This document shows, one piece after another, positions 1-57,995 of a stretch of 64,000 nucleotides of DNA (position 1 is its first letter; every line of letters begins with the position of its first letter). Origin of the DNA: an uncultured virus (IMG/VR IMGVR_UViG_3300032285_001110) (taxonomy: Duplodnaviria > Heunggongvirae > Uroviricota > Caudoviricetes); the IMG/VR virus record IMGVR_UViG_3300032285_001110, one strand, 5' to 3'. The translations under genes were made by a program, and so were the position numbers. The notes under the pieces were generated by a model that made no database searches, was not told the DNA's origin, and was given only the letters and a program-made list of their open reading frames with translations.

Positions 1-1572
1 AACCATAGGCTCATTGTTAGCAAAGCGGATTGCACGTAGGAAGTACTTACCACCAGCAGTCCAGTGAACACCAGGGCTTTCGCCAGCTAGGATAGACACA
101 GTACCAGAAGGCTTAACGGTAGTCATCTTTACAGACTCACGAATGCCAAGCCACTCACTGTAGGTCTGGTCATAGCTCTTGACCAAAGTGTAACCTTCAT
201 CCATCCACTCACGAAGCACAGGCAAGCCCTTGGCATCTGCAAAGTTTGCAACACCAGAGATAGAAGTACCAATGCGGCGGTTACGCTGCATGATAGCGTT
301 AGTCTCTTCCCAGTGGGTAGGGAGTAGCGTCACAGTCTTTGCATAAAGGTATGCAAACTTAAGCGTACGCTTAAAGTCCTCAAGGGAGTCATGACGATTC
401 AAGTAAGTCTCAACCAAAGTACACATCTCAAAGCTTTCAAGGCTTTGCTCTGCACATGGGTTGTAGCCTACTACTCGGTGGTCCTTGTTGTTAATGCCAT
501 CTGCAAGACGACCATACTTACGAGACATATCCATCCAGATTACGCCTGGCTCACCGTTGCGTACAATGCCGTCTACGATAGGCGAGAAGTCGGTTCCAAC
601 ACAAACTTCTACGCTGTTGTTAGACATCCAAGCCCAACCTGGGGCCTCTGGGTCGTAGCTATTCCGTTCAGGAAAACGCTCCCCATTCTTAAGATTCAGG
701 AAATCCTCATCATCAATACGACCAATAAGCAACTCAGCACTACGACGAACGTTACCAGAGACAACGCAGACACCAATCATGTTGCCAATGTCAGCCAAGT
801 CACGACGAGTAACCTTCTCACCCTTGCGACCCTCAAACATCTTGCGAATCTGGGTGTGCAACTTAAAGAGTGGCTCATGGCCAGCAGCAGTTCCACCAAA
901 GGTAGCAATAGGGGCACCGTAAGGACGAATAAGGTCGTAGTTAAACTCCCAACGCTTCTGGTCAGGCTTCAAGTAAGAGTTAATAAGTGCAGAAGTAGAC
1001 TCAGCCCAACCCTCACGAGTGTCAGGGATAATGTATTCGCTAGGCTCGCCTGGAGCGTAAATCTCAAAGCCCTTGTCAGCACCCTTGTCGTCAAAGCCAA
1101 CACCCACACCAAGCATCGAAGCTTCCATGAGGAAAGCAAAAGGCTTAGCAGGGTTGTTCTTAGTCATTTCATTAGTAGAAACAAAAGCACAGTTCTGAAG
1201 TGCAGCTGAGTTACGCTGAACGTTTACAATGTCAGTACCCATTACCCAAAGCCCACGTCCTGGTGGAGTCCACTTAAGATTAAAGAGACGGTCGAAAGCT
1301 TCCTTAGCTGAAGCTGCTGCCTTAGCGTCTGACCAAGGCAAGCGGTTTAGCTTTGCGTGGTCCTTCTGAAGCGAGTACATACCATTGATTACACGTTCGC
1401 ATACTTCCATCCAAGTTTCCTTGGTGCCATCAGGCTTCTTACGAGAGTAAGTACGCAGAAAGGTAATCTCTCCGACTGAGTTGCCAGCTACGTCTGCGTA
1501 ACCGAAAGGAGCCTTCTTGTCCTTATATCCTGCAACAAATTCTTCTGCTAATCGGAATGAAAAATTAACCAT
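1..1572 (-). CDS. nrdJ: Class II (adenosylcobalamin-dependent) ribonucleotide reductase, RTPR type; 3' end runs off the window
   Basis: Absent from the ORF track because it has no stop in the window. Manual translation from ATG at 1572: MVNFSFRLAEEFVAGYKDKKAPFG...GEITFLRTYSR. Contains the active-site motif GYNPCAEQSLESFEMCTL (~415-470) and TTVKPSGTVS (~95-125). Alternative in-frame ATG at 1581. Confidence 0.93.
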   Translation of the reverse strand, partial: MVNFSFRLAEEFVAGYKDKKAPFGYADVAGNSVGEITFLRTYSRKKPDGTKETWMEVCERVINGMYSLQKDHAKLNRLPWSDAKAAASAKEAFDRLFNLKWTPPGRGLWVMGTDIVNVQRNSAALQNCAFVSTNEMTKNNPAKPFAFLMEASMLGVGVGFDDKGADKGFEIYAPGEPSEYIIPDTREGWAESTSALINSYLKPDQKRWEFNYDLIRPYGAPIATFGGTAAGHEPLFKLHTQIRKMFEGRKGEKVTRRDLADIGNMIGVCVVSGNVRRSAELLIGRIDDEDFLNLKNGERFPERNSYDPEAPGWAWMSNNSVEVCVGTDFSPIVDGIVRNGEPGVIWMDMSRKYGRLADGINNKDHRVVGYNPCAEQSLESFEMCTLVETYLNRHDSLEDFKRTLKFAYLYAKTVTLLPTHWEETNAIMQRNRRIGTSISGVANFADAKGLPVLREWMDEGYTLVKSYDQTYSEWLGIRESVKMTTVKPSGTVSILAGESPGVHWTAGGKYFLRAIRFANNEPMV

Positions 1573-1599
1573 TTCTACCATTTCTACTTTTGACTAAAT

Positions 1600-1615
1600 A
1601 CCCCAGATGTGGGAC
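1600..1615. promoter_or_regulatory. Putative NrdR box upstream of nrdJ
   Basis: Minus strand GTCCCACATCTGGGGT matches all six strongly conserved positions of the NrdR-box consensus (acaCwAtATaTwGtgt). It lies 28 nt upstream of the RNR start, just after a -10-like GACAAT. Confidence 0.65.
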
Positions 1616-1688
1616 TTCTATTGTCGGTCATTTCAGCCTACTACACACCTGTTAATATCTCCAAATGCACAAATACTCGGTAAATAAT

Positions 1689-1722
1689 AGTGCCCACCAT
1701 GTTTCAATACATGGCAGGCACT
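1689..1722 (-). terminator. Probable intrinsic terminator between the TGT-like gene and nrdJ
   Basis: 14-bp stem AGUGCCUGCCAUGU/ACAUGGUGGGCACU, fully paired only as minus-strand RNA (two G-U wobbles), followed by AUUAUUU. Confidence 0.6.
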
Positions 1723-1743
1723 GTTATCAGATACTTACTTTAA

Positions 1744-3234
1744 CTATCCTTCGATGTTATCTCGAATAATCATGGTGGTTTTTTCCTCTGAAATTATCTG
1801 TGGTTTGTCTTTCATGGCCTGTACTCGGTCACCAAAAATCGCACTTAGAACACCTTGGCTGGCATTCTTTTGGGCAGTAATCTGAATGAACTCTTTGGAC
1901 TCGTCCAGGGCCTTCAACTTCTCCAACATCTTGAAGTATCGGTCCATCTCCTGAGACACGTTTGGGTCTGCGTAACCACCGTTCAATTCCTCTGTATACC
2001 GCATGAATGCTACTCTTTGAGCCTGCATCTCTAGTAACGCTGTGTTCATTGCCTTTAGCTGTTCGGGTGTCTTTACTTCTATTGGAAGGTTGAATGCACA
2101 CGTATTATTCTCCTTAAATGCAGGGCAATTTGCGGCTACAAAACAGGTGTTACATTGGCGTAAACTTGCATATTGGCTCTGTACTACTGGCACATCTTTG
2201 AGTACGTCTCGGCCATTTTCATTCTCTACAACAGACTTCATCTGATACCCAAAAACAGGCATTGAAGTGACCTCATTTGGGTCTCTTTGTACTACTTCTT
2301 GACGTTCAACTTTCCGCATCTCAGAACCACTGTTATTAGAAAGGTACCCCTCCATTTCCATCAAACCAGTGTATAGGGTATCATCACTGTTATCAGATAC
2401 TTTCTCACCCTGGATGACTGTGAGCTTTGGTTTATCTTTATCCATTTTGCTTTCTAACTGTAGGTATGACCATACTGCAACTTTGGTTGCTTCTTTAGTA
2501 TCATCTTCAATAAACTTTTGAAAATCTAGGCCCGCACCTTCAACAATATTTTTATATCGTTTACGTGCTTGGTCTTTCATACTCTTTGGATAACGTACCA
2601 GCTTGGTGCTATCCCATATAATTGTTTCTCCACGACGCATTGGCGACAACCATGACAACGTACTTGCTGTCTCAAAATGAATCTGTCGTAGGTTATCTGG
2701 CTTTGCTGTGGCTAATGCATGAAATCTTGTACCGAATAGACGTTGGCAATCTCTTGCAACTGTGGCTAAGGATGTTATATTTTCTATAACGTCGCCTGGA
2801 AATGCAATCTGGTATGAGGCGTCTGCCCATTCATAAATCAATTGCTTGTTGTACGACTCGTGCCATACTACAATCATCTTTGGGTCACGCTCAAACGCTT
2901 TGCGTTCGTTTACAATCCATGGCAAGCCCATTACTTGGGAATCAAACTCAACCCAACCTTCAATACGGTCGTAGTTATTTGCAATAAAATCTTCGTAATC
3001 TGCTGCGTAATCTTCTAATTCTCGCTGCGATAAATTTGCTTTATCCGCTTGAACAGCTCCCGAATCTACCCATACTTTCATATCTGGTAGGAAATGCTCT
3101 GCAATATAGTATTGCTTTGTCTTTGGCAATCCACGTTTCCGTAATCCCCAGTAATTCAGCATGACGTGTTCTACGCCTGCTGCTTCCAGTAACGTTCTGT
3201 TACTTGGTATCTCAACCCCACTAAAAACAATCAC
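1744..3234 (-). CDS. TGT/DpdA-like TIM-barrel protein (divergent) with a C-terminal Cys4 domain
   Basis: VWVDSGA (TGT DSGG-like), IVVWH, RFHALA (HxLG-like) and FETASTLSW (DSxSW-like) occur in the expected order. C-terminal CNTCFVAANC...C motif. GTG start overlaps the upstream stop. Confidence 0.6.
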   Translation of the reverse strand: MIVFSGVEIPSNRTLLEAAGVEHVMLNYWGLRKRGLPKTKQYYIAEHFLPDMKVWVDSGAVQADKANLSQRELEDYAADYEDFIANNYDRIEGWVEFDSQVMGLPWIVNERKAFERDPKMIVVWHESYNKQLIYEWADASYQIAFPGDVIENITSLATVARDCQRLFGTRFHALATAKPDNLRQIHFETASTLSWLSPMRRGETIIWDSTKLVRYPKSMKDQARKRYKNIVEGAGLDFQKFIEDDTKEATKVAVWSYLQLESKMDKDKPKLTVIQGEKVSDNSDDTLYTGLMEMEGYLSNNSGSEMRKVERQEVVQRDPNEVTSMPVFGYQMKSVVENENGRDVLKDVPVVQSQYASLRQCNTCFVAANCPAFKENNTCAFNLPIEVKTPEQLKAMNTALLEMQAQRVAFMRYTEELNGGYADPNVSQEMDRYFKMLEKLKALDESKEFIQITAQKNASQGVLSAIFGDRVQAMKDKPQIISEEKTTMIIRDNIEG

Positions 3235-3716
3235 TCAAACATCAACCCCTCTGTACGAGTCAATCTAGCATCTTCAGTTCTCAGTACGTTCTGACGATTA
3301 ATTGATTCTTCGATATCGTTCCATTTACGGAATTTCTTCGGGGCATCTGGCCTAAACTCTGGCCGTGTATAACTTGGTACTCCAAACATTACCGATGGAA
3401 TACCCAGTTCAAATGCATACGCCCATAGCTCTGGGTTATTTGTAATAAATAAATCAATAGGTCCCCTGGAACGGGCTACCTTTATTTGGCGTTCTGCCAG
3501 GTTCTCACCTTCGAGGTGCACTGATGAACCATAAATCAAATCATAATCAACAACCTTATTCAGGTTTAGCCACAACTTAGTTTCTGCTTCTGTTGTCGGT
3601 GACATGAATGTCAAACGATTGTACACACTTAGTGTTCCAATCATTAGAATTCCTGTGCCAATAGGCTCATCTCCTGGGCCACGTAATACTCCAGATATAT
3701 CTACCAATATTTGCAA
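3231..3716 (-). CDS. HAD-superfamily-like protein with degenerate motif I
   Basis: N-terminal ILVDISGVL resembles hhhDxDGVL, followed by an alpha/beta pattern. TTG start with SD GAGGAG. Confidence 0.5.
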   Translation of the reverse strand: MQILVDISGVLRGPGDEPIGTGILMIGTLSVYNRLTFMSPTTEAETKLWLNLNKVVDYDLIYGSSVHLEGENLAERQIKVARSRGPIDLFITNNPELWAYAFELGIPSVMFGVPSYTRPEFRPDAPKKFRKWNDIEESINRQNVLRTEDARLTRTEGLMFE

Positions 3717-3719
3717 CGT

Positions 3720-3815
3720 TTACTCCTCGTAGCAATCACATTTGCAGTTGTCTTCTACACAAATGTTTTTATACAATTCGTGACCGCAATTACGGCACGT
3801 ATCTAACAGTGACAC
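3720..3815 (-). CDS. 31-aa Cys-rich microprotein (not in ORF track)
   Basis: GTG start overlaps the upstream TAG. Translation MSLLDTCRNCGHELYKNICVEDNCKCDCYEE*. Fills the gap exactly. Confidence 0.6.
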   Translation of the reverse strand: MSLLDTCRNCGHELYKNICVEDNCKCDCYEE

Positions 3816-4324
3816 TAATTTCCTTTTATTGTAATTGCAGGAATTGGTGCTACGTAGGTTTTGTATGCATTTACCCAGTTACTTGCAATTGCTTTTTGTG
3901 CTACTGCCAGCTTAATCTTGCCTGTACAAACTAAGGTCTTCAACTTAGTTTCTAACGCATCTTTTTTGTGGCTATTTTGTCCTGCGTATGGCTGTGGCCA
4001 TAGGTTTTTTGGGTCAGTTGGATTGCCGCCTAGTTCTAAACTAATTAGGTGGTCCTCCTCATAATTACCCAAATCTGTACCGTATGCTGCTACCTCATAC
4101 TGGTATGCATCACTCAGCTGCTTGGCTTTTAGATTAGTTGTGTACGATGACGAGGGACGAATAGTTGCTGTCCATCCACTTACGCAAATAGTACTTTGAA
4201 TGTTAGCTTGAGTCACTGCTGGGTTAGTTACTCCAGGAGTAATTACTTTTACTGGCAAATTCCAATCAGTAACTACCGCTGACATTACGCTCAATGCCAT
4301 AACAACTGCTATTACTTTACTCAT
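3815..4324 (-). CDS. Exported HNH-like (His-Me finger) nuclease-family protein
   Basis: Signal-peptide-like N-terminus MSKVIAVVMALSVMSA, then YEEDHLISLELGGNPTDPKNLWPQ (DH...GG...NL pattern of HNH folds). Confidence 0.65.
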   Translation of the reverse strand: MSKVIAVVMALSVMSAVVTDWNLPVKVITPGVTNPAVTQANIQSTICVSGWTATIRPSSSYTTNLKAKQLSDAYQYEVAAYGTDLGNYEEDHLISLELGGNPTDPKNLWPQPYAGQNSHKKDALETKLKTLVCTGKIKLAVAQKAIASNWVNAYKTYVAPIPAITIKGN

Positions 4325-5223
4325 TAGTTATTCCTATACAACGCTGCTCGACGAATTAACGTTGATGCATCTGGGAAGTCTACCCCATAAATAGACTTAA
4401 TATCTGTGCCTATTCTGGCTGCCGCTGCGTTGCGGACTTCTCTCAACAAATCAATTGCTCCACTACGTTTAGCTGCTTGCCAACGGTAATTATAAAAATC
4501 ATTGTAGCCTTTTCCATTTGGCGTAAATGCTTCTGACCTTTGGCTGTGTATCTCTGTATACAATGCATTTGCCTGCTGGTATGCTGCTTGTAATGCAGTT
4601 TGCGAGTTTCTGTGCTGCGGCCCTGCAGATGTATTTATTTCTAAATCTTGCATTGCTTTGGTTGCACGAATATACGCTTGGTGGGCTGAGGTGTAATCTG
4701 ATACAGCAATTGAATCCCACTCTGGATTACGTGGTGCTTCTTGCGTTGGGTTTGGTGGAACTGTCCACTCGTTGTACTTTAAATCATACGCAGCATATGG
4801 CTTGATATTAGTAATATCTGTAGCTTGTGGGTTAACGTAAAAAGTTAACTCGTAACCATTCCAGTTTTCAGTCTGAGGTTGAAGTTCTGCCCTAAAATCT
4901 TCGTTTAACTGGTCAGCTACTTCTCGGTCAGTTAGTCCACGGTATTCAGGGTTAGCTTGACGAAACTGAATAAAGTCTACGCCTACTAGGCAATCCAAAT
5001 CTCCTGGCATTCTTGCCGCAGACCACTGGTATGAAACGCCACTACCTGCCAACCATGGGTGTGCCCATAGTTCTGCATGACGAAACTTTTGTGCTAGAAA
5101 CCCGTGTAGCAATTGGTTAATACCATTACGCACCCATGACTTTAGAGCCCTGCCTTCAAATAAAGTAGGGTCTAGCTGTGGGGCTGGCGTACTAAAGTAC
5201 GACGTAGGGTTATAACTAGTCAT
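4324..5223 (-). CDS. Pol-beta-superfamily nucleotidyltransferase
   Basis: WLAGSGVSYQW...GDLDCLVGV gives the hG[GS]...DhD signature; a third acidic residue is probably in YELTFYV. Confidence 0.75.
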   Translation of the reverse strand: MTSYNPTSYFSTPAPQLDPTLFEGRALKSWVRNGINQLLHGFLAQKFRHAELWAHPWLAGSGVSYQWSAARMPGDLDCLVGVDFIQFRQANPEYRGLTDREVADQLNEDFRAELQPQTENWNGYELTFYVNPQATDITNIKPYAAYDLKYNEWTVPPNPTQEAPRNPEWDSIAVSDYTSAHQAYIRATKAMQDLEINTSAGPQHRNSQTALQAAYQQANALYTEIHSQRSEAFTPNGKGYNDFYNYRWQAAKRSGAIDLLREVRNAAAARIGTDIKSIYGVDFPDASTLIRRAALYRNN

Positions 5224-5233
5224 ACAAACTAGT

Positions 5234-5524
5234 TTAGTCTACTGGGGTAGTACTTTCTGGGTTAATATTCCGCTTTAGTAGGGCTTCCTTAACCTTGTCC
5301 TGTGGAGTAGGTTCCTTTTGCGACATAATTGCTACCATCGCCTGGACGATACGTCCTGTTAGAATCTCTCGCTCAAACTCGTCAACAATCTGCTTTGCGT
5401 TTTGGTATACGTCTACGTTAGTAGCCTTACGCTCAATCGTTGGCAGTTCTTCTGGAATTTCTGTGTAGGTGGAAATGCCACCATCTTTGTTTACTACTAC
5501 CAGGTAATAGGTTTCTGCATCCAT
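5234..5524 (-). CDS. Hypothetical protein
   Basis: 96-aa ORF, coupled to the upstream gene by TAATG. Confidence 0.75.
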   Translation of the reverse strand: MDAETYYLVVVNKDGGISTYTEIPEELPTIERKATNVDVYQNAKQIVDEFEREILTGRIVQAMVAIMSQKEPTPQDKVKEALLKRNINPESTTPVD

Positions 5525-6087
5525 TAGTTGTAATCTCCTCGCATTGCACGGAACTTTGTGGTCATAACACTGTGCATTGGGCAGAAATTACAAATGTAAA
5601 TCTTTGGTCCGTCTGCGTGTTCTGGTTTTGGTAGATGTAAGTCTTTGCGTTCCTTTGCCGTATTAGGCAACAAACGCTTTTTTGGGTCCATGTAATCATC
5701 ACAGTTATTATTTGGCTGAAGGTGATACTTCCAACACTTCATGGCATCTTCAGCAAACGTCATTTTGGTATCGTAAAATGACTTCTCTGGGTCTAGTTCG
5801 TCCAGACCTGCTGAACCGCCCTTGCCTAACTGCTCTAAAATACCCTTACGCTGTTTGCCATCCATCCATGCGGATACAGGTACTTTAAACAACTTGCCAA
5901 CATGTGGCTCACCCGAAGGAAACACGTGCTTCTCTAGGGAAATTTCTAGCAGGTAATCTTTATCGCTTGGGCCATCGTAATCTGGGAGTTCTTCCCACGA
6001 CTCGCACACAAAACAACGCAATAAACGGATTAATGGTCCGTCATGCTCTTTGGTACCAATTAATGGCTTGCCAAAATCGTCAATCAA
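5524..6087 (-). CDS. Hypothetical Cys/His-rich (metal-binding) protein
   Basis: CFVC, CWKYH, CDDY and CNFCPMH motifs. TTG start with SD AAGGAG. Confidence 0.75.
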   Translation of the reverse strand: MIDDFGKPLIGTKEHDGPLIRLLRCFVCESWEELPDYDGPSDKDYLLEISLEKHVFPSGEPHVGKLFKVPVSAWMDGKQRKGILEQLGKGGSAGLDELDPEKSFYDTKMTFAEDAMKCWKYHLQPNNNCDDYMDPKKRLLPNTAKERKDLHLPKPEHADGPKIYICNFCPMHSVMTTKFRAMRGDYN

Positions 6088-6114
6088 ATTATGCTCCTTG
6101 TTAATACACCATTT

Positions 6115-6120
6115 AGTATA
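6115..6120 (-). promoter_or_regulatory. Possible sigma-A-type -10 element (TATACT)
   Basis: TATACT in the 42-nt intergenic gap upstream of the 5524-6087 gene. Confidence 0.4.
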
Positions 6121-6129
6121 CTACAAAAA

Positions 6130-6342
6130 CTACTTGCCTGGGTTAACCTGGTTCGCTACTGGGTACTCGCTAGTTGCAAAACCGTGACCTGCAAATGGGT
6201 GTAGGGTCTGACGGTTGTCCATTGTCTTTTCGTGACCTTCAAGGTCCATGACCTCAGTGTTTGGACGTGCCTTACGGTACTTTCCATCGGTGCTGCCTTC
6301 GTGAAGGCCCTGGTTCATTGAACGACTAGTGTTAACTGCCAT
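6130..6342 (-). CDS. Hypothetical protein
   Basis: 70-aa ORF in the tightly packed minus-strand series. Confidence 0.7.
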   Translation of the reverse strand: MAVNTSRSMNQGLHEGSTDGKYRKARPNTEVMDLEGHEKTMDNRQTLHPFAGHGFATSEYPVANQVNPGK

Positions 6343-6344
6343 TT

Positions 6345-6548
6345 CTATACCATCTTTCCTTTAATTCTTGCTTGCTTACGCTTTTCACCACAAGGTGGGC
6401 AAATACCCATCATGCTGTATAGAAACTCTGTAGGGTTCATAATTACACCACAAGTTGGGCATGGTGCTGAACCTCTATACAGTGTAGCATTCTGAGCAAT
6501 CTGAAATGCCTGCAACTCCAGTGTGTCTTGTCCATCGCCATCATACAT
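6345..6548 (-). CDS. Small zinc-ribbon protein
   Basis: CPTC...CPPC motif. Confidence 0.7.
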   Translation of the reverse strand: MYDGDGQDTLELQAFQIAQNATLYRGSAPCPTCGVIMNPTEFLYSMMGICPPCGEKRKQARIKGKMV

Positions 6549-6550
6549 AA

Positions 6551-8575
6551 CTATTCTCCTCTAAACGCTGAGCTCATGCGTTGTCCTCTAGTTGGCTTTG
6601 CTTCGTCTAGTCTGCGAGACATTCCAGCATCACGGAGATAACCTTCAGGGTCTTTGTGAGCGGCGGTCTGTGTAAACGGAACACTGGAACCCTCGTTAAA
6701 ATGGTTATAGTGAGTTTTTGCAGCCAATGCAAGATTACCATTAGCAATGTGAGAGTGAACCTGGTTCATAACTTTTTCTGAGGCGTCTGCCTTAGCCATA
6801 GCTCCCATAATTGCAGAACTTGGCCTACGAATACCTGGACTTTGTTCAAAAAAGTTATTTACTGTTGCAGATGTTACATCGGAAGGAGCTGATTCTTCCT
6901 CCCTGTTAGAAGACGCTTCAGGCTTTGCCATATTAGCAGAGTTCCATTTAGAAGTTGGGTACGAACGTACTGCAAGGTCAGTGCCGTGAGGTCCCAAAAG
7001 TTTCTTTATGTGAGTTGGTAATACATCTGCTGGGTCAGTTTCTGAAGGAAGCTGGCCATTGTCAATTTTGTCATGAGTTTGATTAAAGTGGGTATGTGCC
7101 AACCGTATTGCGTCTAGTGCTGCATCTTTTCGACCTGGCAATATATTGCTTGCAGTAGGAAACAGACTTTTTTCTGCAACATAATTTACAGCTTTTTGAA
7201 TGTTAGCTCGTACAGTGCCCCTACTGCTTTCCGCAACTTCTCTATCTGGAATAAGTCTGTTAGGAGTTTCTGATATCTTTGAGCCAACAACTGTATTTCT
7301 GGCAGCTCGAACATCACTAACTACCCTAGCAAGTTCTTTTCCGTACCCTTTTCGGTATTTACGTGCTGACGTGTAATCTACAGCACCTGTTGCTTCAAGT
7401 TCTTTTGGAAGCATCGGAAACTTTTCAGGGTTAACAGATTTAGGTTCTACAGATTCAGTTCTAGAAGTTCCAGCACCTAGTTCTCTACCAAACTGGTCTA
7501 CTTTACGTACTGGGTAACTAATACCTTCACCCGTAGTGTGCAGCTTTACAACTCGGGCTGGGCTTGGACTCCAAGGAGTAGCTTCAAATGTTGGGGCAGC
7601 GGACTTGGCTCGTAGGTTCCAGTCAGATGCTTCTTCAGCTGGAGTCAGTTTCTTGGTGTACTGACTACGCTCGTTTTTCTCTGCAGTACTGAGACGGGCA
7701 GGGTCTGGTCCACCAATTAGAGGAATACGCTCATTACTAGTAAATGAATCTGGAGTTTTTGCAACCCCAGAGTTGTTATCAGCGTACTTTGAATAGTCTT
7801 TTGTAGTTCTGTTAGCAATTCCTACCAAGTCTGACATATTACGAAGTTCGTACTTGTCTTTTTCTCCAACATTTGAACTAAGTACTGGAGTTTTGGTCAT
7901 TCCATTTTCAGAAAGAAGATTTGCAACACGAGATAGCCTCAACGCAGTAGCGTTTAGGTGTGAAGAAGCCGATAGTGCTCCACCACGTTTGTGGTTATAG
8001 TAATGATTATCGAGATGCTTGTCAGCAGCATACAGCTCTTTGTTTGCTTGGTCAATAATTTTAGCACTAGGGTGATTAGGGTCATTTTCTGGGTTAAAAT
8101 GTCTGCTAAAAAGAGAAACCGCGTGCTCAAGACCATTACTAATAAACTTTAAGTTGTCACCGTGGTCATGGTGTCCAGGAGTAACCCAAAACTTTTCAGG
8201 AGCTTCTTTCTTGTCCATAAGGTCAGCATTATCATAGCGGGCCCTGGTAGTAGTAGCTGTAGAACGTGATTTAACAGGGCCGTTAATATTTTCCTGAACA
8301 GCAGGTGCCAATTGCTGCCCTACATTTGGGCTATCTACAGGAGCAGGAACGCTAGTTTGAGGAGCACTCGTGACAGGGTCTCCATCTAACTGACGAAGAA
8401 TTGGGCCATGTACAGGATGTTTAAGCTGCCAGGCACGTTGATTTTTTAATAAATTTAGATTCGAATTAACTTCACTTAATTCGTTTTTAGAAATACCTGC
8501 TTCTTTTTTAGCATCACGGTCAGCTAATGCCGCATTGTATTTTTCTCTAGTAACATAGCTTACTATTTTTGCCAT
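6551..8575 (-). CDS. Large hypothetical protein (low complexity, His/Ala/Pro-rich)
   Basis: 674-aa ORF with SD AGGAG; no recognisable motif. Confidence 0.8.
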   Translation of the reverse strand: MAKIVSYVTREKYNAALADRDAKKEAGISKNELSEVNSNLNLLKNQRAWQLKHPVHGPILRQLDGDPVTSAPQTSVPAPVDSPNVGQQLAPAVQENINGPVKSRSTATTTRARYDNADLMDKKEAPEKFWVTPGHHDHGDNLKFISNGLEHAVSLFSRHFNPENDPNHPSAKIIDQANKELYAADKHLDNHYYNHKRGGALSASSHLNATALRLSRVANLLSENGMTKTPVLSSNVGEKDKYELRNMSDLVGIANRTTKDYSKYADNNSGVAKTPDSFTSNERIPLIGGPDPARLSTAEKNERSQYTKKLTPAEEASDWNLRAKSAAPTFEATPWSPSPARVVKLHTTGEGISYPVRKVDQFGRELGAGTSRTESVEPKSVNPEKFPMLPKELEATGAVDYTSARKYRKGYGKELARVVSDVRAARNTVVGSKISETPNRLIPDREVAESSRGTVRANIQKAVNYVAEKSLFPTASNILPGRKDAALDAIRLAHTHFNQTHDKIDNGQLPSETDPADVLPTHIKKLLGPHGTDLAVRSYPTSKWNSANMAKPEASSNREEESAPSDVTSATVNNFFEQSPGIRRPSSAIMGAMAKADASEKVMNQVHSHIANGNLALAAKTHYNHFNEGSSVPFTQTAAHKDPEGYLRDAGMSRRLDEAKPTRGQRMSSAFRGE

Positions 8576-12652: not shown

Positions 12653-12949
12653 TTACTGTGCTGTAATGGCAAAAATCATTGCAGAAATCTCACCATCACG
12701 GCTTTCGATGGTGGTGAATCCTGGCTTGCAAGTTAGGTCTAGCCCTCGTGGAGCTACATATCCTCGTGCAATTGCAATTGCTTTGACAGCTTGGTTAACT
12801 GCACTAGCACCTACGGCACGAAGCATTACTTGACGCTTCTCGTATAGGGCATGTGCAATTGCTGATGCTACGGATTGTGGGCTGGAACCGCCACCAACTC
12901 GAAGGAGTGTTTCCTCGGTAGATGATGTTACGGCAATTTCTTCGGTCAT
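12653..12949 (-). CDS. spoVS: Stage V sporulation protein S (SpoVS, Alba-like fold) homologue
   Basis: LRVGGGSSPQSVASAIA...AVGASAVNQAVKAIAIARGYVAPRGLDL...PGF is the characteristic SpoVS sequence. Confidence 0.9.
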   Translation of the reverse strand: MTEEIAVTSSTEETLLRVGGGSSPQSVASAIAHALYEKRQVMLRAVGASAVNQAVKAIAIARGYVAPRGLDLTCKPGFTTIESRDGEISAMIFAITAQ

Positions 12950-14877: not shown

Positions 14878-15727
14878 ATGGGGCACACTGCTTGCAACGC
14901 ATATCAGGACCGTTTACACAGTTAGGTACATGGTTGTTGTCAATGTCACGCATTAACTGCTCTGCTGCATCAAAGATGTGACGCACAAGTTCGTAATCAG
15001 CCTTGACGTTAAACTCTTTGTACGACTGGTCAGCCTTTAGTTCATAAAGAAAAGTAATCTCGTCAATTGGATTACCCTCAGAGTTCTCCATACCCATACG
15101 CTTCATAAGCTCTAGGTACATTTGCCCCTGCAATACGTGAGAACCAAAAGGACGCTTAATCTGTCCCCATGCCTTCATGAAGTCGCCGTCTGCAGCTTGC
15201 ATCAACTGAGGTGCTTCTGCACGGATAGTGCCTGGGCCAATGGACTTAATCTCGATTAGAGTGTCAGGACCAATTCCACGAATCCAACCATCAGTGTGGC
15301 CCTTGATACGTAGAGCATCATCGAACAAAGTTACCTCTGCATATACCAGCTTCTTTGCTGGAGCTTGGCAAGTACCGCACTCAGAAGGCGAGGTACCCCA
15401 AGTAATGTGGTCGCATACGTCACACTTAAACATTCCGTGCAATACTCCCATTTCCTGGAAGTAGCTCTGCCACTTGGCGTGGATGTAGTGCCCCTCGTCA
15501 AAGATAGACTGCAGACGGAGTGGTGGCTTTTCAGCTATCTTGGTCTCTCCATTGAGCAAGAAGTATGATGCACGCTTGCACCAGTCACGCTTAATAATTT
15601 CAGACGGGTGTAGCACCGTGGTACTACGGTCACCTACTGGTCGTGCCATGAGGTGACGTTCAATATCTCCTAGGAGACGACTTGGACGTGCCTTAGCATC
15701 CAAGAACTTCTTTAAATCAGTGTTCAC
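14867..15727 (-). CDS. Cas4-like PD-(D/E)XK exonuclease
   Basis: HPSE...C, GHYIH, GHTDG, LIEIKS and QGQMY motifs; C-terminal C...CKQC (Fe-S type); internal CDVC/CGTC zinc ribbon. Confidence 0.8.
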   Translation of the reverse strand: MNTDLKKFLDAKARPSRLLGDIERHLMARPVGDRSTTVLHPSEIIKRDWCKRASYFLLNGETKIAEKPPLRLQSIFDEGHYIHAKWQSYFQEMGVLHGMFKCDVCDHITWGTSPSECGTCQAPAKKLVYAEVTLFDDALRIKGHTDGWIRGIGPDTLIEIKSIGPGTIRAEAPQLMQAADGDFMKAWGQIKRPFGSHVLQGQMYLELMKRMGMENSEGNPIDEITFLYELKADQSYKEFNVKADYELVRHIFDAAEQLMRDIDNNHVPNCVNGPDMRCKQCAPYEQ

Positions 15728-16065
15728 TTCTTGCCCTTCTCTAACTGAAAGATGTACTCTTTCAGAGTCATTTTAGTGCGGTATTTGCGTTGCCACTTTC
15801 GTACCAGAGCGTTACGCTCTCGATGGGAAAGCCCTCCCCAAATGCCATGGTCTTCATCGGTTCTGACTGCTTCCCAAAGACAGTTAAGTCTAACAGGGCA
15901 CGGTAGAGTTTCGCCATTGCCAAAGCAATATTCTTTTGCTTGCGTAGCAATGACTTTGTATAGGTCTTTATCCCTAGGGGGATAGAAAATATCAGGGTCT
16001 TCAATGCCATTACATTCTGCTTCATGATGCCAGCTAAAGTCACTGTTCTGGAAGTGTTCGAGCAA
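15724..16065 (-). CDS. whiB: WhiB-family Fe-S transcription regulator
   Basis: W...AEC...FYP...AKEYC...CPVRLNCL...GIWGGLSHRER. Confidence 0.93.
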   Translation of the reverse strand: MLEHFQNSDFSWHHEAECNGIEDPDIFYPPRDKDLYKVIATQAKEYCFGNGETLPCPVRLNCLWEAVRTDEDHGIWGGLSHRERNALVRKWQRKYRTKMTLKEYIFQLEKGKK

Positions 16066-54713: not shown

Positions 54714-57700
54714 TTATGCCTGAGCCTCAGTCCAGGATAGACGACCAGCAAGAGCTACACCAGTAGAACCAACGTTCTGTACTACAACCGTAACTACGTC
54801 AGGACCATCTGGGTAAATCTGAGCATTAGCCAGAGTACCACCAGAAACAGTACCACCACCACCGAGGATGGAGTTACCAAGGTCACGAACCAGAGGCAAG
54901 TCAACGCTACCAGTAGACGATACGAAGAATCCACCAGTGGTCTCACCACCAGTAACCGAGGTAGTACCACCAGCGTAGTCAGCAATTTGAGCTAGCGAAG
55001 AGGTACCGAGGGTAGTTGAGTTACCCACGATGTTAGACCAGCTAGTTCCAGTAGATGGCAGACCATTTAGGTTTAGAGTTACCAGAATGTTACCAGTACC
55101 TAGAAGCGATACGTCAAGCGAACGTAGCACTAGCTGCATACGGTTGATTAGGTCACGAGTACCAAATGCTGCTGCGATACCGTTGTCTACCGAAGGTGCA
55201 ATACGAACCGACATTAGGGCAAGCGAACTTGCAGAAGTGAAGGTAAGTGCAGTAGTCGAAGTAACAGCTACGGTAATGAAGTTGCTAATGGTGATGATGG
55301 TTGCAGTACCAGTACCGCTAATCGCAAGAACTACCGAACCTGCTGGAACGTTAGTTCCAGCTACGTTCATACCAACTACAACACCTACGTTAGTGGAGAT
55401 GTTAATGGTGTTTACGTTAGTTGAGGTAGTGGTCTGTACAGTGATACCAGTTGGGTTTACAGTACCTGCTGGAACTAGACCCGATACCTTTGGCTGACCG
55501 TAGGTAAATAGAAGCGACTTGTCATCATCGAAGCGACCATCCATGATAACCGAGGTTCCCCAGTGGCTAATGGTAGGAGCGAAGGTTGGGAATGCCTGCT
55601 CAACAGCAATTGGTGCAAGTGCCGAGTAGGTAAACGCAGTACCTGTAGTAGCACCCATTGGTACGAATACGGTGCTTGGGTTAGCAACCGAACCAGTTAG
55701 TGCCTGGCTGAAGGTAATGGTAGTACCGTTGATAGCACTTACAAAAGTACCATCTGGGAATACCGAGTTAGCAGTTGCCGAAACTACACGCTGACCAACC
55801 TGGATACCAGTGTTAGCCGATACAGTACCTACGTTGCTACCAAGAGCAATAGTAACAGTGGTAGTAGCACCAGCCTGTGCACGGGTTAGACCAGTAAAGC
55901 TAGTTGCAGTAATTCCTGAGTAGTTAACGTGCTCGTAAGCAGTTGAGCCCTTGATTACTAGAGTACCTGAACTTGGGAATCCAGTGGTTGAAGCAACGGT
56001 AATCGAAGTATCGCTTGCACCAACGCTTGCACCAAGAATGGTCTTCTGAGGCTGAGTAACCGACTCGTAACGACCTGGCAAGTTACCTGAACGCATGTAA
56101 GCTTCAAAGTTAACGTTGTTGTTCTGAATCTTGTGTACGTAAACAATGTCACCATTGGTTGCACGCAGACCCCAACGAACGAAACCAGCACCGTACCACG
56201 AGAAGTCGATGTAGAACATCTGCATCTTCGATAGGTCGATGGTGTACCCCGAAGGACCAGTTCCATCCATCTTGTCAATGTTCCACTGCGACTGAGGAAC
56301 ACGAAGTTCCTGAGTCTTAGAAACAACTACAGCAGGAGCAGTAATACCACGGTAAGAAGGCGAGATAGTCAAGCTGGTCTCAGATGCAATTGCATCTACA
56401 CGGTATGACTGTCCACGAACTACAATGAAGTCACCAGGAACTAGCTGTTCAGGGAAAGCAGTTGGGAAGTTGGCGTTAGCAGTAATGGTATTGCTACCAT
56501 TGGTAACGTCTACACGACCAGCAATCTGGTAAGTCGAGTTACGACGAACAGCGTATAGAGTCTGACCATCAAACTCAAAGAACAGACCGTTCTGGTGGTC
56601 AAAGATACCTAGACGGTTTGCAGCTCCGTACCAACCAGTAACCGAAACGTAGTAAAGACCAGTAGCGGTAATGTCTACACCTGGGTTAGATGCAGTTGGG
56701 GTGTAAGTAAAGCTGTTGTAACCAGTGATATTAAAGTTGGTAAAAGTACCATTGAAAATAGACTCGTTAGCACCAGAAATAACAATTGTCGAACCAGGCT
56801 GAATGTTGTGCTGGTCCTTGGTGGTAACAGTTACTAGGTTAGTGCTAGTGCTGTACTTTAGAAGGTCAAGCTGTACGTTTGGCTTCAGGATAGTACCCGA
56901 AGACATCTGGATACCCTTACCCGACTGGTAACGGAAGTAACGACGAGTCTGACGAACTGCTGCTTCGTAGTTAGAAGTACCGTTAGAGGTAAAGATAACT
57001 CCACCGTCAAATGGGCGGTGCAAGAAGGCAGCCTGCGAACGAGTGTAAACAGCACCACCAGAGATGGTTCCAGTAGGAGCCACCGAAGAGTAGAAGTTGA
57101 ATACAGTTGGGCTTACAACCTGAGCAACAACCCAAGTACCATTAGGAGCACCCGAAGTTGCGGAAGTACCAGTTACAAGAATTTCGTTACCAATGCTCAG
57201 ACCGTGAGGAACAGAGGTAGTAACTGTAATCTTTGAGCCCGAGAAGCTCATGGTAGGAGTTCCACCGACAGCTGCACCAGTGTAGAAGTTACCCTGTACA
57301 ATGGCAGTCTTGTTAGCGTCAAAGATACCTACACCAGTAGTGGTAGCGGTTGCAGCTGCACGAGCAATAAAGGTGAAGGTAGTAGCACTTGGGGTTACAC
57401 CACTGTCTACGGCAAAGATACCGTTAGCAATTGGGTTTAGAGTGTCACGCACAACAATAGGAGTACCGATAGGAAGTACTGGCATACCAGTACCATTTAC
57501 GGTAATGACTCGAGAACCTGCAGTAGTAACAATACCAGAGATACCCGATACCTGAACGGCACTTGGATATGCAAATGGACGCATGTTGATTGTGCCGAGG
57601 TTTTCCCACTTCGACACCTGAGTACCATACTCAAAGTCAGTATCGATAAGTGCCTGAGCAGTCGAGGTACGGAACTTGTTAGCTGGGTCAGTGTTGATTT

Positions 57701-57995
57701 CTGCTGGGGTGAACTTCTCAGCATATTCGTCAACTACAATCTGTAGCTTGTCAGTCGATGACATACCTACAGTGTTAAAGTTTAGAACTAGAGTAGTGCT
57801 ATCTACACCAGCAACAGAGCTGTTAGTGTAAGAAGTAGCTTTTAGAGACTGGTCTGAAAAATTGTAAATCACCTGGTTCATGGTGACGTTGGTGATGAGG
57901 ATAAGTCGTTCACGAAGAATGTTCTTCGAGATAACTACCGTCTTTGTAGAGGGGTTAAATGTATAACCAGTCTCCAAAATTACTTTTCTTGCCAT
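54714..57995 (-). CDS. Large virion structural protein (fibre/baseplate-like) with repeated beta domains
   Basis: 1093 aa; LIDTDFEYG, RQTRRYFRYQSGKG and HWGTSVIMDGRFDDD; TVTT..PHGL..G repeats. Confidence 0.78.
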   Translation of the reverse strand: MARKVILETGYTFNPSTKTVVISKNILRERLILITNVTMNQVIYNFSDQSLKATSYTNSSVAGVDSTTLVLNFNTVGMSSTDKLQIVVDEYAEKFTPAEINTDPANKFRTSTAQALIDTDFEYGTQVSKWENLGTINMRPFAYPSAVQVSGISGIVTTAGSRVITVNGTGMPVLPIGTPIVVRDTLNPIANGIFAVDSGVTPSATTFTFIARAAATATTTGVGIFDANKTAIVQGNFYTGAAVGGTPTMSFSGSKITVTTSVPHGLSIGNEILVTGTSATSGAPNGTWVVAQVVSPTVFNFYSSVAPTGTISGGAVYTRSQAAFLHRPFDGGVIFTSNGTSNYEAAVRQTRRYFRYQSGKGIQMSSGTILKPNVQLDLLKYSTSTNLVTVTTKDQHNIQPGSTIVISGANESIFNGTFTNFNITGYNSFTYTPTASNPGVDITATGLYYVSVTGWYGAANRLGIFDHQNGLFFEFDGQTLYAVRRNSTYQIAGRVDVTNGSNTITANANFPTAFPEQLVPGDFIVVRGQSYRVDAIASETSLTISPSYRGITAPAVVVSKTQELRVPQSQWNIDKMDGTGPSGYTIDLSKMQMFYIDFSWYGAGFVRWGLRATNGDIVYVHKIQNNNVNFEAYMRSGNLPGRYESVTQPQKTILGASVGASDTSITVASTTGFPSSGTLVIKGSTAYEHVNYSGITATSFTGLTRAQAGATTTVTIALGSNVGTVSANTGIQVGQRVVSATANSVFPDGTFVSAINGTTITFSQALTGSVANPSTVFVPMGATTGTAFTYSALAPIAVEQAFPTFAPTISHWGTSVIMDGRFDDDKSLLFTYGQPKVSGLVPAGTVNPTGITVQTTTSTNVNTINISTNVGVVVGMNVAGTNVPAGSVVLAISGTGTATIITISNFITVAVTSTTALTFTSASSLALMSVRIAPSVDNGIAAAFGTRDLINRMQLVLRSLDVSLLGTGNILVTLNLNGLPSTGTSWSNIVGNSTTLGTSSLAQIADYAGGTTSVTGGETTGGFFVSSTGSVDLPLVRDLGNSILGGGGTVSGGTLANAQIYPDGPDVVTVVVQNVGSTGVALAGRLSWTEAQA

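Follow-up and report, generated by a model that had tools for sequence, protein, structure and literature searches.

A conserved gene trio of virulent actinophages combining a predicted nucleotidyltransferase, a putatively HAD-like protein and a DpdA-branch protein that lacks the canonical nucleophile

The 64,000-nucleotide stretch of DNA analyzed here at full length (the window) belongs to the uncultured virus IMGVR_UViG_3300032285_001110, a member of the Caudoviricetes deposited in IMG/VR, and carries at positions 1,744 to 5,223 five adjacent minus-strand genes, here named A to E. An earlier note, based on the letters of this DNA, had described a chain of five genes for a nucleotidyltransferase (NTase), an exported HNH protein, a microprotein, a HAD-like protein and a protein with the fold of tRNA-guanine transglycosylases (TGTs), and had proposed a three-component module of the NTase, HAD-like and TGT-like proteins for nucleotide/RNA handling or anti-defense. 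In the present analysis, three of the five genes form a conserved set. Together, A, D and E make up a well supported, conserved part of an operon in one large clade of virulent phages of actinobacteria, which comprises freshwater myoviruses of approximately 90 kb and the BRock group of Streptomyces phages. Its profile and its modeled fold place E genuinely within the DpdA branch of the TGT superfamily, with a serine at the position of the catalytic nucleophile. It is tentatively proposed, at a probability of roughly 0.4, that E and D serve as recognition or adaptor subunits for A, which would be the sole intact enzyme of the module. The five genes and the motifs on which this proposal draws are the following (ORF, open reading frame; aa, amino acids):

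4324-5223, minus strand: gene A, ORF of 299 aa, predicted nucleotidyltransferase-fold protein
4993-5046, minus strand: motif G60-S61...D75-x-D77 of A, with the third carboxylate E125 at 4849-4851
3815-4324, minus strand: gene B, ORF of 169 aa, hydrophobic N-terminus and HNH-like motif
3720-3815, minus strand: gene C, ORF of 31 aa, microprotein with six cysteines
3231-3716, minus strand: gene D, ORF of 161 aa, putative HAD-like protein; its stop overlaps the start of E
1744-3234, minus strand: gene E, ORF of 496 aa, long-form protein of the DpdA/TGT superfamily
2662-2664, minus strand: Ser191 codon of E, at the position of the TGT/DpdA nucleophile aspartate
2098-2154, minus strand: Cys4 motif C361-x2-C364-x5-C370-x8-C379 of E, a predicted metal-binding motif in the C-terminal domain

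Conservation of these genes was assessed in 86 related loci obtained from two IMG/VR scans, the second of which yielded 431 stretches confirmed by tblastn, with the best 80 of them being kept. Gene presence was counted by tblastn with the window proteins in the 72 loci having at least 3 kb upstream of E. D was present in all 72 of these loci and A in 71, as was a further upstream ORF of 187 aa (5524-6087) in 72, C in 30 and B in a single one, which is the window's own contig. As the order A, D, E is kept in 71 of the 72 loci, the conserved core consists of these three genes, and the chain of five is not one unit. D abuts or overlaps E in nearly all of the 72 loci, and the junction between the two is almost never interrupted. 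In 16 of 71 loci, namely in the window and in L030, L034, L043, L046, L049, L052, L053, L055, L056, L060, L063, L073, L077, L079 and L088, unrelated gene insertions exceeding 200 nt separate A from D. Inserted genes of various unrelated sorts make this slot, which lies at 3717-4324 in the window, an insertion hotspot. Both E and D are full-length and free of frame breaks in every locus examined, and many of their residues are invariant. At an E-value of at most 1e-3, a total of 1420 homologues of A, 367 of D and 1615 of E were collected.

Outside of IMG/VR, full-length E occurs in six GenBank phage records, which belong to the five Streptomyces phages BRock (two records), GiJojo, Alone3, LuckySocke and pSt2308 (about 31% identity), and A was found in exactly the same six records. 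GiJojo has the counterparts in the same order, with gp178 being 37% identical to A, gp179 25% to D and gp181 31% to E. D is 25-28% identical to GiJojo gp179, which is labeled 'hydrolase', and to BRock gp38. The co-occurrence of NTase, HAD-like and TGT-like genes in related genomes, as anticipated by the earlier note, is thereby borne out for 71 of the 72 loci and for the GenBank phages. BRock is a virulent myovirus with 29 tRNA genes (PMC7453282); an annotated RNA ligase is encoded about 17 kb from its module. Its synteny with the window spans the whole replication block, with primase, helicase, polymerase, resolvase, WhiB, exonuclease, RuvC, 'sporulation protein', the 187-aa gene, A, D and E, and because of this extent the gene order in BRock reflects common descent and cannot be taken as independent evidence of a coupling between A, D and E. 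A blastn search of the region against GenBank phages gave no match, and a search for E (alignment A1) in 185,579 prokaryote genomes found none. For the distant E representatives P0382 and P0347, no close relatives were found in IMG/VR.

E is composed of a TIM barrel (aa 1-272), a disordered linker (aa 274-309) and a Cys4/helical C-terminal domain. Over its full length it matches phrog_887 of PHROGs, 'queuine tRNA-ribosyltransferase' (1.1e-58), and an exhaustive search (E-value of at most 1e-3) assigned 830 clusters at 50% identity to its family. The alignment of this family (A2, 93 sequences) was matched by hhalign to the DpdAs of the phages 9g, Iggy, Sonali and Vid5 (alignment A5) with a probability of 98.7% and an E-value of 3.4e-16 over 234 columns. 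The barrel was modeled by AlphaFold2 (AF2) with a predicted local distance difference test score (pLDDT) of about 97 over residues 1-266. VIA-align superimposed E on the archaeosine TGT 1iq8_A (Z 17.6, root-mean-square deviation (rmsd) 3.4, 253 aligned), and Foldseek ranked a bacterial TGT first (E-value 2.4e-6). Taken together, hhalign, VIA-align and Foldseek make the previously suggested TGT fold of E firm. No sequence match to E was obtained in Pfam, NCBIfam or the PDB, and the TGT family of Pfam matched 0 of the 93 family members. The four cysteines of the Cys4 motif are invariant in 93 of 93 sequences. DpdA and TGT proteins have a structural zinc site adjoining the barrel; the four invariant cysteines of E are located in a separate C-terminal domain beyond the disordered linker. 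This stretch also gave a weak PHROG match to an exonuclease family (E-value 0.029).

For Salmonella DpdA, passages of PMC10164549 describe Asp95 as general acid/base and Asp256 as nucleophile, with Asp130 and His181 holding the base. The exchanges D95A and D256A abolish the reaction, and three aspartates are invariant in TGT and DpdA according to the same passages (PMC10164549). The residues of the 9g enzyme, which can presumably be placed on the Asp130/His181 numbering of Salmonella, compare with E and its 93 representatives as follows:

9g D72: D57 in E; Asp in 58 of 93 representatives
9g D114: D98 in E; Asp in 76 of 93
9g H196: H172 in E; His in 78 of 93
9g D215 (nucleophile, DSSSW): S191 in E (ASTLSW); Ser 42, Ala 15, Thr 12, Gly 11, Met 3 and Tyr 3 in the 93

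With a serine at the nucleophile position, E can indeed be called degenerate, as had been supposed for the TGT-like partner. W195 of E is invariant in the 93-sequence alignment. Among 124 representatives in which the motif could be located, an aspartate stands at the nucleophile position in only two, one of which is a mis-hit and the other P0261. This protein, 39% identical to E, reads A-D-S-G-S-W and may be either a reversion or a surviving active form.

The synthesis of a 7-deazaguanine precursor was likewise not found in the lineage. QueC, FolE and QueD were present in none of five relatives of 98-100% completeness (91-104 kb) in a search that matched its control genomes and covered neither QueE nor the host pathway, and no que genes came up when the window and the remainder of the complete related genome G003 were compared with PHROGs. 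A canonical que/dpd pathway elsewhere in the genome, which the earlier note had named as an observation that would speak against its proposal, is thus not seen for QueC, FolE and QueD in five complete relatives, and neither of its other two refuting outcomes, failing fold assignments or missing co-occurrence, was obtained. With Ser191 in place of the nucleophile and without a preQ0 pathway in the lineage, E would not be able to perform the known double-displacement exchange of guanine for 7-deazaguanine, and canonical 7-deazaguanine insertion by E is, as far as the sequences tell, excluded.

A shows an N-terminal domain of the pol-beta type of NTases (about aa 30-155), which is followed by a C-terminal helical bundle (about aa 165-299). 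The signature of pol-beta nucleotidyltransferases consists of G-[GS], D-x-[DE] and a third carboxylate. In a 38-sequence alignment of A (A3) the residues G60, S61, D75, D77 and E125 are invariant, with 13 residues between S61 and D75 and with D75-L-D77 as the second element, and the motif is also kept in GiJojo gp178. The AF2 model of A (pLDDT 89.6, predicted template modeling (TM) score 0.80) exhibits an alpha/beta domain and then the helical bundle. VIA-align placed residues 32-148 of the model on 1ylq_B, a putative NTase (Z 6.9, rmsd 3.2, 89 aligned), and a wide VIA-align search with A was dominated by generic three-helix bundles (Z 8-10.7), the helical bundle itself giving generic matches only. 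The top rows of Foldseek were ANT(6)-Ib, CdnD, a CCA-adding enzyme, DrrA, CdnE and AAD(9), with E-values of 0.037-0.15. In the ESM Atlas, A lies beside viral clusters with PF01909 in 12-33% of their members, and one structure row for A was an NTP_transf_2 (PF01909) cluster (TM 0.62/0.79). Sequence and profile searches with A alone gave nothing in Pfam, PHROGs or PDB chains and one below-threshold match in NCBIfam (E-value 0.033; 14.3 bits versus a cut-off of 35). The 38 members of alignment A3 matched no NTase family of Pfam, with a weak match to DUF6932 in 7 of 38 (best E-value 0.013). The fold indicated by AF2, VIA-align and the ESM Atlas and the invariant triad support the previous impression that the NTase is catalytically intact, and A can be accepted as a predicted NTase fold with an intact catalytic triad.

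The HAD-like character of D was seen in the order of its motifs as read from the alignment. Motif I is D-I-S in the window; among relatives, its first position is occupied by D, E, S, N or V and its third by S, N, Q, D or E. Given this variation in its catalytic motif, the D family is unlikely to share a phosphatase activity. No match was obtained in Pfam, PHROGs, NCBIfam or the PDB with D singly, with 38 members in Pfam or with a profile in the PDB. A comparison by hhalign with a phage PNK-type HAD protein gave a probability of 26.8%, and the ESM feature score of 0.89 to NIF/HAD phosphatase clusters is only a lead. The catalytic degeneracy once suggested for D is therefore upheld by its variable motif I, whereas the HAD fold itself found no profile match.

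The closest annotated relative of E outside of the clade is gp021 of Bacillus phage BCD7, a protein of 757 aa from phrog_887 which is annotated as queuine tRNA-ribosyltransferase. It is homologous to E in the barrel (26% identity, E-value 3e-12) and in the C-terminal Cys4/helical domain (E-value 8e-13), including the Cys4 motif common to both, and its barrel matches the characterized DpdAs of 9g and Iggy. However, BCD7 gp021 keeps the aspartate (G-D-S-T-T-W versus A-S-T-L-S-W in E) and is encoded directly behind FolE, QueC, QueE and QueD, whereas E has A and D as fixed neighbors. The annotated nucleotidyltransferase encoded nearby in BCD7, gp015, was considered as a homologue of A and rejected as unrelated. 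The DpdA1 proteins of Enterobacteria phage 9g and Pseudomonas phage Iggy belong to the same superfamily as E and share the barrel, with E having equivalents of their D72, D114 and H196. Unlike E, they are only about 310 aa long, do not contain its C-terminal domain, possess D215 and are encoded beside FolE and QueD. Parts of PMC6884629 state that DpdA1 enzymes of this type insert preQ0 or G+ (PMC6884629). The DpdA of Salmonella Montevideo, which acts in Dpd restriction-modification, likewise has a TGT-like TIM barrel and binds DNA, and its Asp95, Asp130 and His181 have equivalents in E; yet it needs the nucleophile Asp256, DpdB and ATP, whereas E is devoid of this aspartate and nothing resembling a DpdB partner was seen. 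That a TGT fold can serve without enzymatic activity is known from QTRT2, the non-catalytic subunit of eukaryotic TGT, which has lost catalytic residues and works on tRNA together with a catalytic paralogue. Unlike in the case of QTRT2, no catalytic TGT or DpdA paralogue was found in scans of the window and of G003.

No ligase or kinase family was found among the window ORFs scanned. As QueC, FolE and QueD are also missing from the complete relatives, the PNKP/Rnl RNA-repair kit and the dpd pathway are both poor fits, in agreement with the earlier note; a PNK-type phosphatase is encoded elsewhere in G003. PADLOC and NCBIfam contain no family matching A, D or E beyond the below-threshold NCBIfam match of A. 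A search of the full-text literature, which did not cover the supplementary phage tables of PMC6884629 and PMC10516641 that possibly list BCD7 or BRock, returned nothing on an A-D-E module.

The region also stands out by its nucleotide composition. On the sense (minus) strand, the trinucleotides CTT and CTC occur about 48 times per kb in the ribonucleotide reductase gene downstream of E versus about 7 times per kb across approximately positions 1510-6550. This roughly sevenfold depletion spans nine consecutive genes, from an ORF of 67 aa (6345-6548) to E. When synonymous codons were resampled from the window's own usage, the following z scores were obtained for CTT/CTC:

Depleted genes: E -5.5, D -4.2, B -3.8, A -5.3
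Depleted upstream ORFs: 96 aa (5234-5524) -2.8, 187 aa (5524-6087) -3.5, 67 aa (6345-6548) -2.1
Outside: reductase +5.6, next upstream gene (6551-8575) 0.0

All three codon frames are depleted and the opposite strand is normal. The most depleted words are TCTT (0 observed versus 22.4 expected), GCTT (1 versus 17.9) and TCTC (1 versus 9.5). In the purged genes NCT codons have become NCA, with the amino-acid composition being unchanged; the purge is selection on synonymous sites, and C-to-T deamination was rejected as its cause on the same two grounds. A gene for a virion protein of 1093 aa (54714-57995) is, like the reductase gene and opposite to the purge, enriched in CTT/CTC (z +4.6). Among related loci the purge is patchy, with 28 of 81 showing less than 12 and 47 of 81 at least 20 occurrences per kb, and the Streptomyces phages are unpurged. 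Loci with the purge show a gradient: the depletion peaks at E, stops abruptly either at the terminator or some 1 kb inside the reductase gene, and tapers off across 4-5 kb in the upstream direction. Purged and unpurged loci cannot be told apart by any one residue of E; the best score was 0.81 and is confounded by relatedness. At this edge of the module the following elements are found:

1-1581, minus strand: class II (B12-dependent) ribonucleotide reductase gene, downstream of E, running off the window edge
1722->1689, minus strand: terminator-like hairpin 3' of the E stop, with a 14-bp stem, 7 G-C pairs and a 6-nt loop
1721-1733, minus strand: copy of a 13-mer just after the E stop
2387-2399, minus strand: copy of the same 13-mer inside the codons of the disordered linker of E

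The 13-mer contains a 4+1+4 palindrome and has only these two exact copies in the window, which flank the segment encoding the C-terminal domain of E. Exact copies at these places were found in 64 of the 86 related loci, with both being present in 32, and they are absent from the loci of the Streptomyces phages. Related loci have a hairpin of different sequence at the equivalent place.

In the reading favored here, E together with the translationally coupled D would be a binding subunit devoid of catalysis, which takes hold of nucleic acid (probably DNA) and keeps one of its bases in a flipped-out state. The chemistry would be left to A, by nucleotidyl transfer onto this target or onto a partner. 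DNA is the probable target because the nearest relatives of E act on DNA and because of the C-x2-C-x5-C-x8-C motif in its C-terminal domain. Several observations weigh against this reading. None of the Foldseek matches of A reached an E-value of 0.001, the best being 0.037, and D is putatively HAD-like by its motifs, with no match for this fold in the profile and sequence searches. The locus L015 has kept the microprotein C, D and E while gene A is absent, and the entire co-occurrence lies within one broad clade, so that it may result from inheritance and not from a functional coupling. Moreover, the presence of Asp at the D57 position in only 58 of 93 representatives fits a non-enzyme, yet leaves room for other chemistry, and the family-wide acidic residues E96 and E/D203 (the latter in 89 of 93) could serve a non-canonical mechanism.

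Such a mechanism would make E an enzyme after all, which either releases the base by hydrolysis like a DNA glycosylase or performs transglycosylation by means of another nucleophile, with the base being provided by the host or via A and D. The pocket residues D98 and H172 are kept, as is D57 in this phage; E96 is found in 83 of 93 representatives, P0261 has the aspartate back at the nucleophile position, and the family is large and under purifying selection. Nevertheless, E96 and the G-E at positions 202-203 also occur in BCD7 gp021, which keeps its aspartate, and are thus family traits and not replacements. The variability of D57, the lack of base-synthesis genes (QueC, FolE and QueD) in complete relatives, and the loss of activity of Salmonella DpdA upon mutation of its nucleophile, as reported in passages of PMC10164549, also speak against an enzymatic E, which is regarded as unlikely. 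A module acting on RNA appears distinctly unlikely. E would then bind tRNA or mRNA in the manner of TGTs, A would extend RNA ends like CCA-adding or tailing enzymes, and D would have its origin in a phosphatase of the end-healing type. This would fit with tRNA enzymes being the best structural matches of the E fold, with CCA-adding enzymes among the weak Foldseek rows of A and with the 29 tRNA genes and the annotated RNA ligase of BRock, and a purge that affects the sense strand only and stops abruptly at the terminator hairpin is what an effect at the mRNA level would look like. But the nearest sequence relatives of E are DNA-acting phage DpdAs and not tRNA TGTs, the window is without a tRNA gene and without an RNA ligase match in PHROG scans, D has no phosphatase nucleophile in most relatives, and the purge is absent from 47 of 81 module-carrying loci.

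It is also conceivable, though clearly improbable, that A, D and E have no joint function and are neighbors by vertical inheritance, with each of them acting alone or with D and E being decaying remnants. The replication block of the window, which is syntenic with that of BRock in its entirety, points in this direction, as do the upstream 187-aa gene, which is conserved just as well (72 of 72 loci, and also the Streptomyces phages), the absence of A from L015 and the unrelated genes inserted between A and D. In contrast, D runs into E or directly adjoins it in nearly all loci, all three genes are retained down to 25-37% identity, and full-length proteins with many invariant residues are not what decay would leave behind. 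As a highly improbable alternative, a dead DpdA could be an anti-defense decoy that occupies DNA sites or sequesters a host factor or base and thereby blunts restriction or a Dpd-type system. A protein without nucleophile and with its pocket kept would suit a binder, and GiJojo has an ArdA-like antirestriction gene some 3 kb downstream; however, PADLOC has no family for A, D or E, the module of the window stands among genes for replication and nucleotide metabolism, and a decoy would leave the intact NTase without a role. Finally, it is very unlikely that the three proteins form an enzyme complex of a new kind that reads nucleic-acid sequence, with the dead DpdA barrel as reader, the dead HAD protein as adaptor and the NTase as catalyst, and that its specificity is written in its own operon. 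A sense strand depleted of CTT/CTC, with [G/T]CT[T/C] being hit hardest, and a depletion that is deepest at E and breaks off at the terminator would be expected if such a complex or a factor working with it acted first on its own transcript or on the exposed coding strand, and the 13-mer could be a loading or autoregulatory site.

With respect to the two genes outside the core, B gave no tblastn match in GenBank phages, and 36 cellular relatives were found, the best of which (56-57% identity) come from metagenome-assembled genomes of freshwater Actinomycetota. Its match to Endonuclea_NS_2 of Pfam (E-value 0.011, 16.4 bits versus a cut-off of 27) is below the cut-off, and the PHROG HNH match has an E-value of 0.36. 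GiJojo gp180 was considered as a homologue of B and rejected as not homologous. As phage relatives were not found and cellular relatives occur in freshwater Actinomycetota, B is most simply explained as a captured bacterial gene in the variable slot, specific to this phage and consistent with an origin in the host lineage; with a z of -3.8 it is already purged of CTT/CTC. The microprotein C lies between A and D in the 30 loci that have it, and is absent from the Streptomyces phages.

The five genes are chained by 1-nt overlaps between A and B and between B and C, a 3-nt gap between C and D and a 4-nt overlap between D and E. This chain on the minus strand and the hairpin behind its last gene, both described before, were recovered in the ORF list and in the hairpin scan. 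A leaderless-type -10 element in front of A could not be confirmed: a consensus scan of positions 1400-6800 found 9 promoter-like sites versus 11.2 +/- 3.6 in shuffles and none before A, with the consensus used being that of sigma-70 and actinobacterial -10-only promoters lying outside the reach of the scan. The upstream ORF of 96 aa (5234-5524) is only 10 nt from A. A tRNA search of the window found none, and neither an RNA ligase nor a que family was present among the 70 window ORFs scanned against PHROGs, as had been stated earlier. The window, with a G+C content of about 44% and all genes of interest on the minus strand, encodes a contractile tail. Its replication block includes two helicases and a primase, alongside a family A DNA polymerase, a recombinase of the UvsX type and a WhiB-like regulator.

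Some further observations concern the surroundings of the module. The product of the 187-aa gene (5524-6087), which is found in all 72 related loci, is a cysteine-rich protein of no known family with 36% identity to GiJojo gp175 and BRock gp42. A homologue of the 'sporulation protein' (phrog_35646, 5.8e-27) and a WhiB-like regulator are encoded at 12653-12949 and 15724-16065, and in G003 a second WhiB-like gene adjoins the reductase gene. At the left end of the G003 genome (L094:1289-4156), in a region beyond the counterpart of the window, the gene of an amidoligase-like protein (572 aa) adjoins that of a protein resembling class II glutamine amidotransferases (360 aa). In G001, the closest record and a fragment of 42 kb, E is missing.

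DpdAs have been divided into bDpdA and DpdA1-4, and the presence of DpdA has been proposed as a signature of 7-deazaguanine DNA modification in viruses (PMC10516641; PMC6884629). Members of the E family are annotated in GenBank and PHROGs as 'queuine tRNA-ribosyltransferase' or 'dpdA-like'. By their alignments they are a large branch of DpdA which has lost the defining chemistry and gained fixed partners, and to take E-family genes as evidence of deazaguanine-modified genomes is probably the wrong reading. In freshwater actinophages, which are abundant, the trio could carry out a transaction of a new kind on DNA or RNA, and as the same three genes are present in the cultivable Streptomyces phages BRock, GiJojo and Alone3, this is directly testable.

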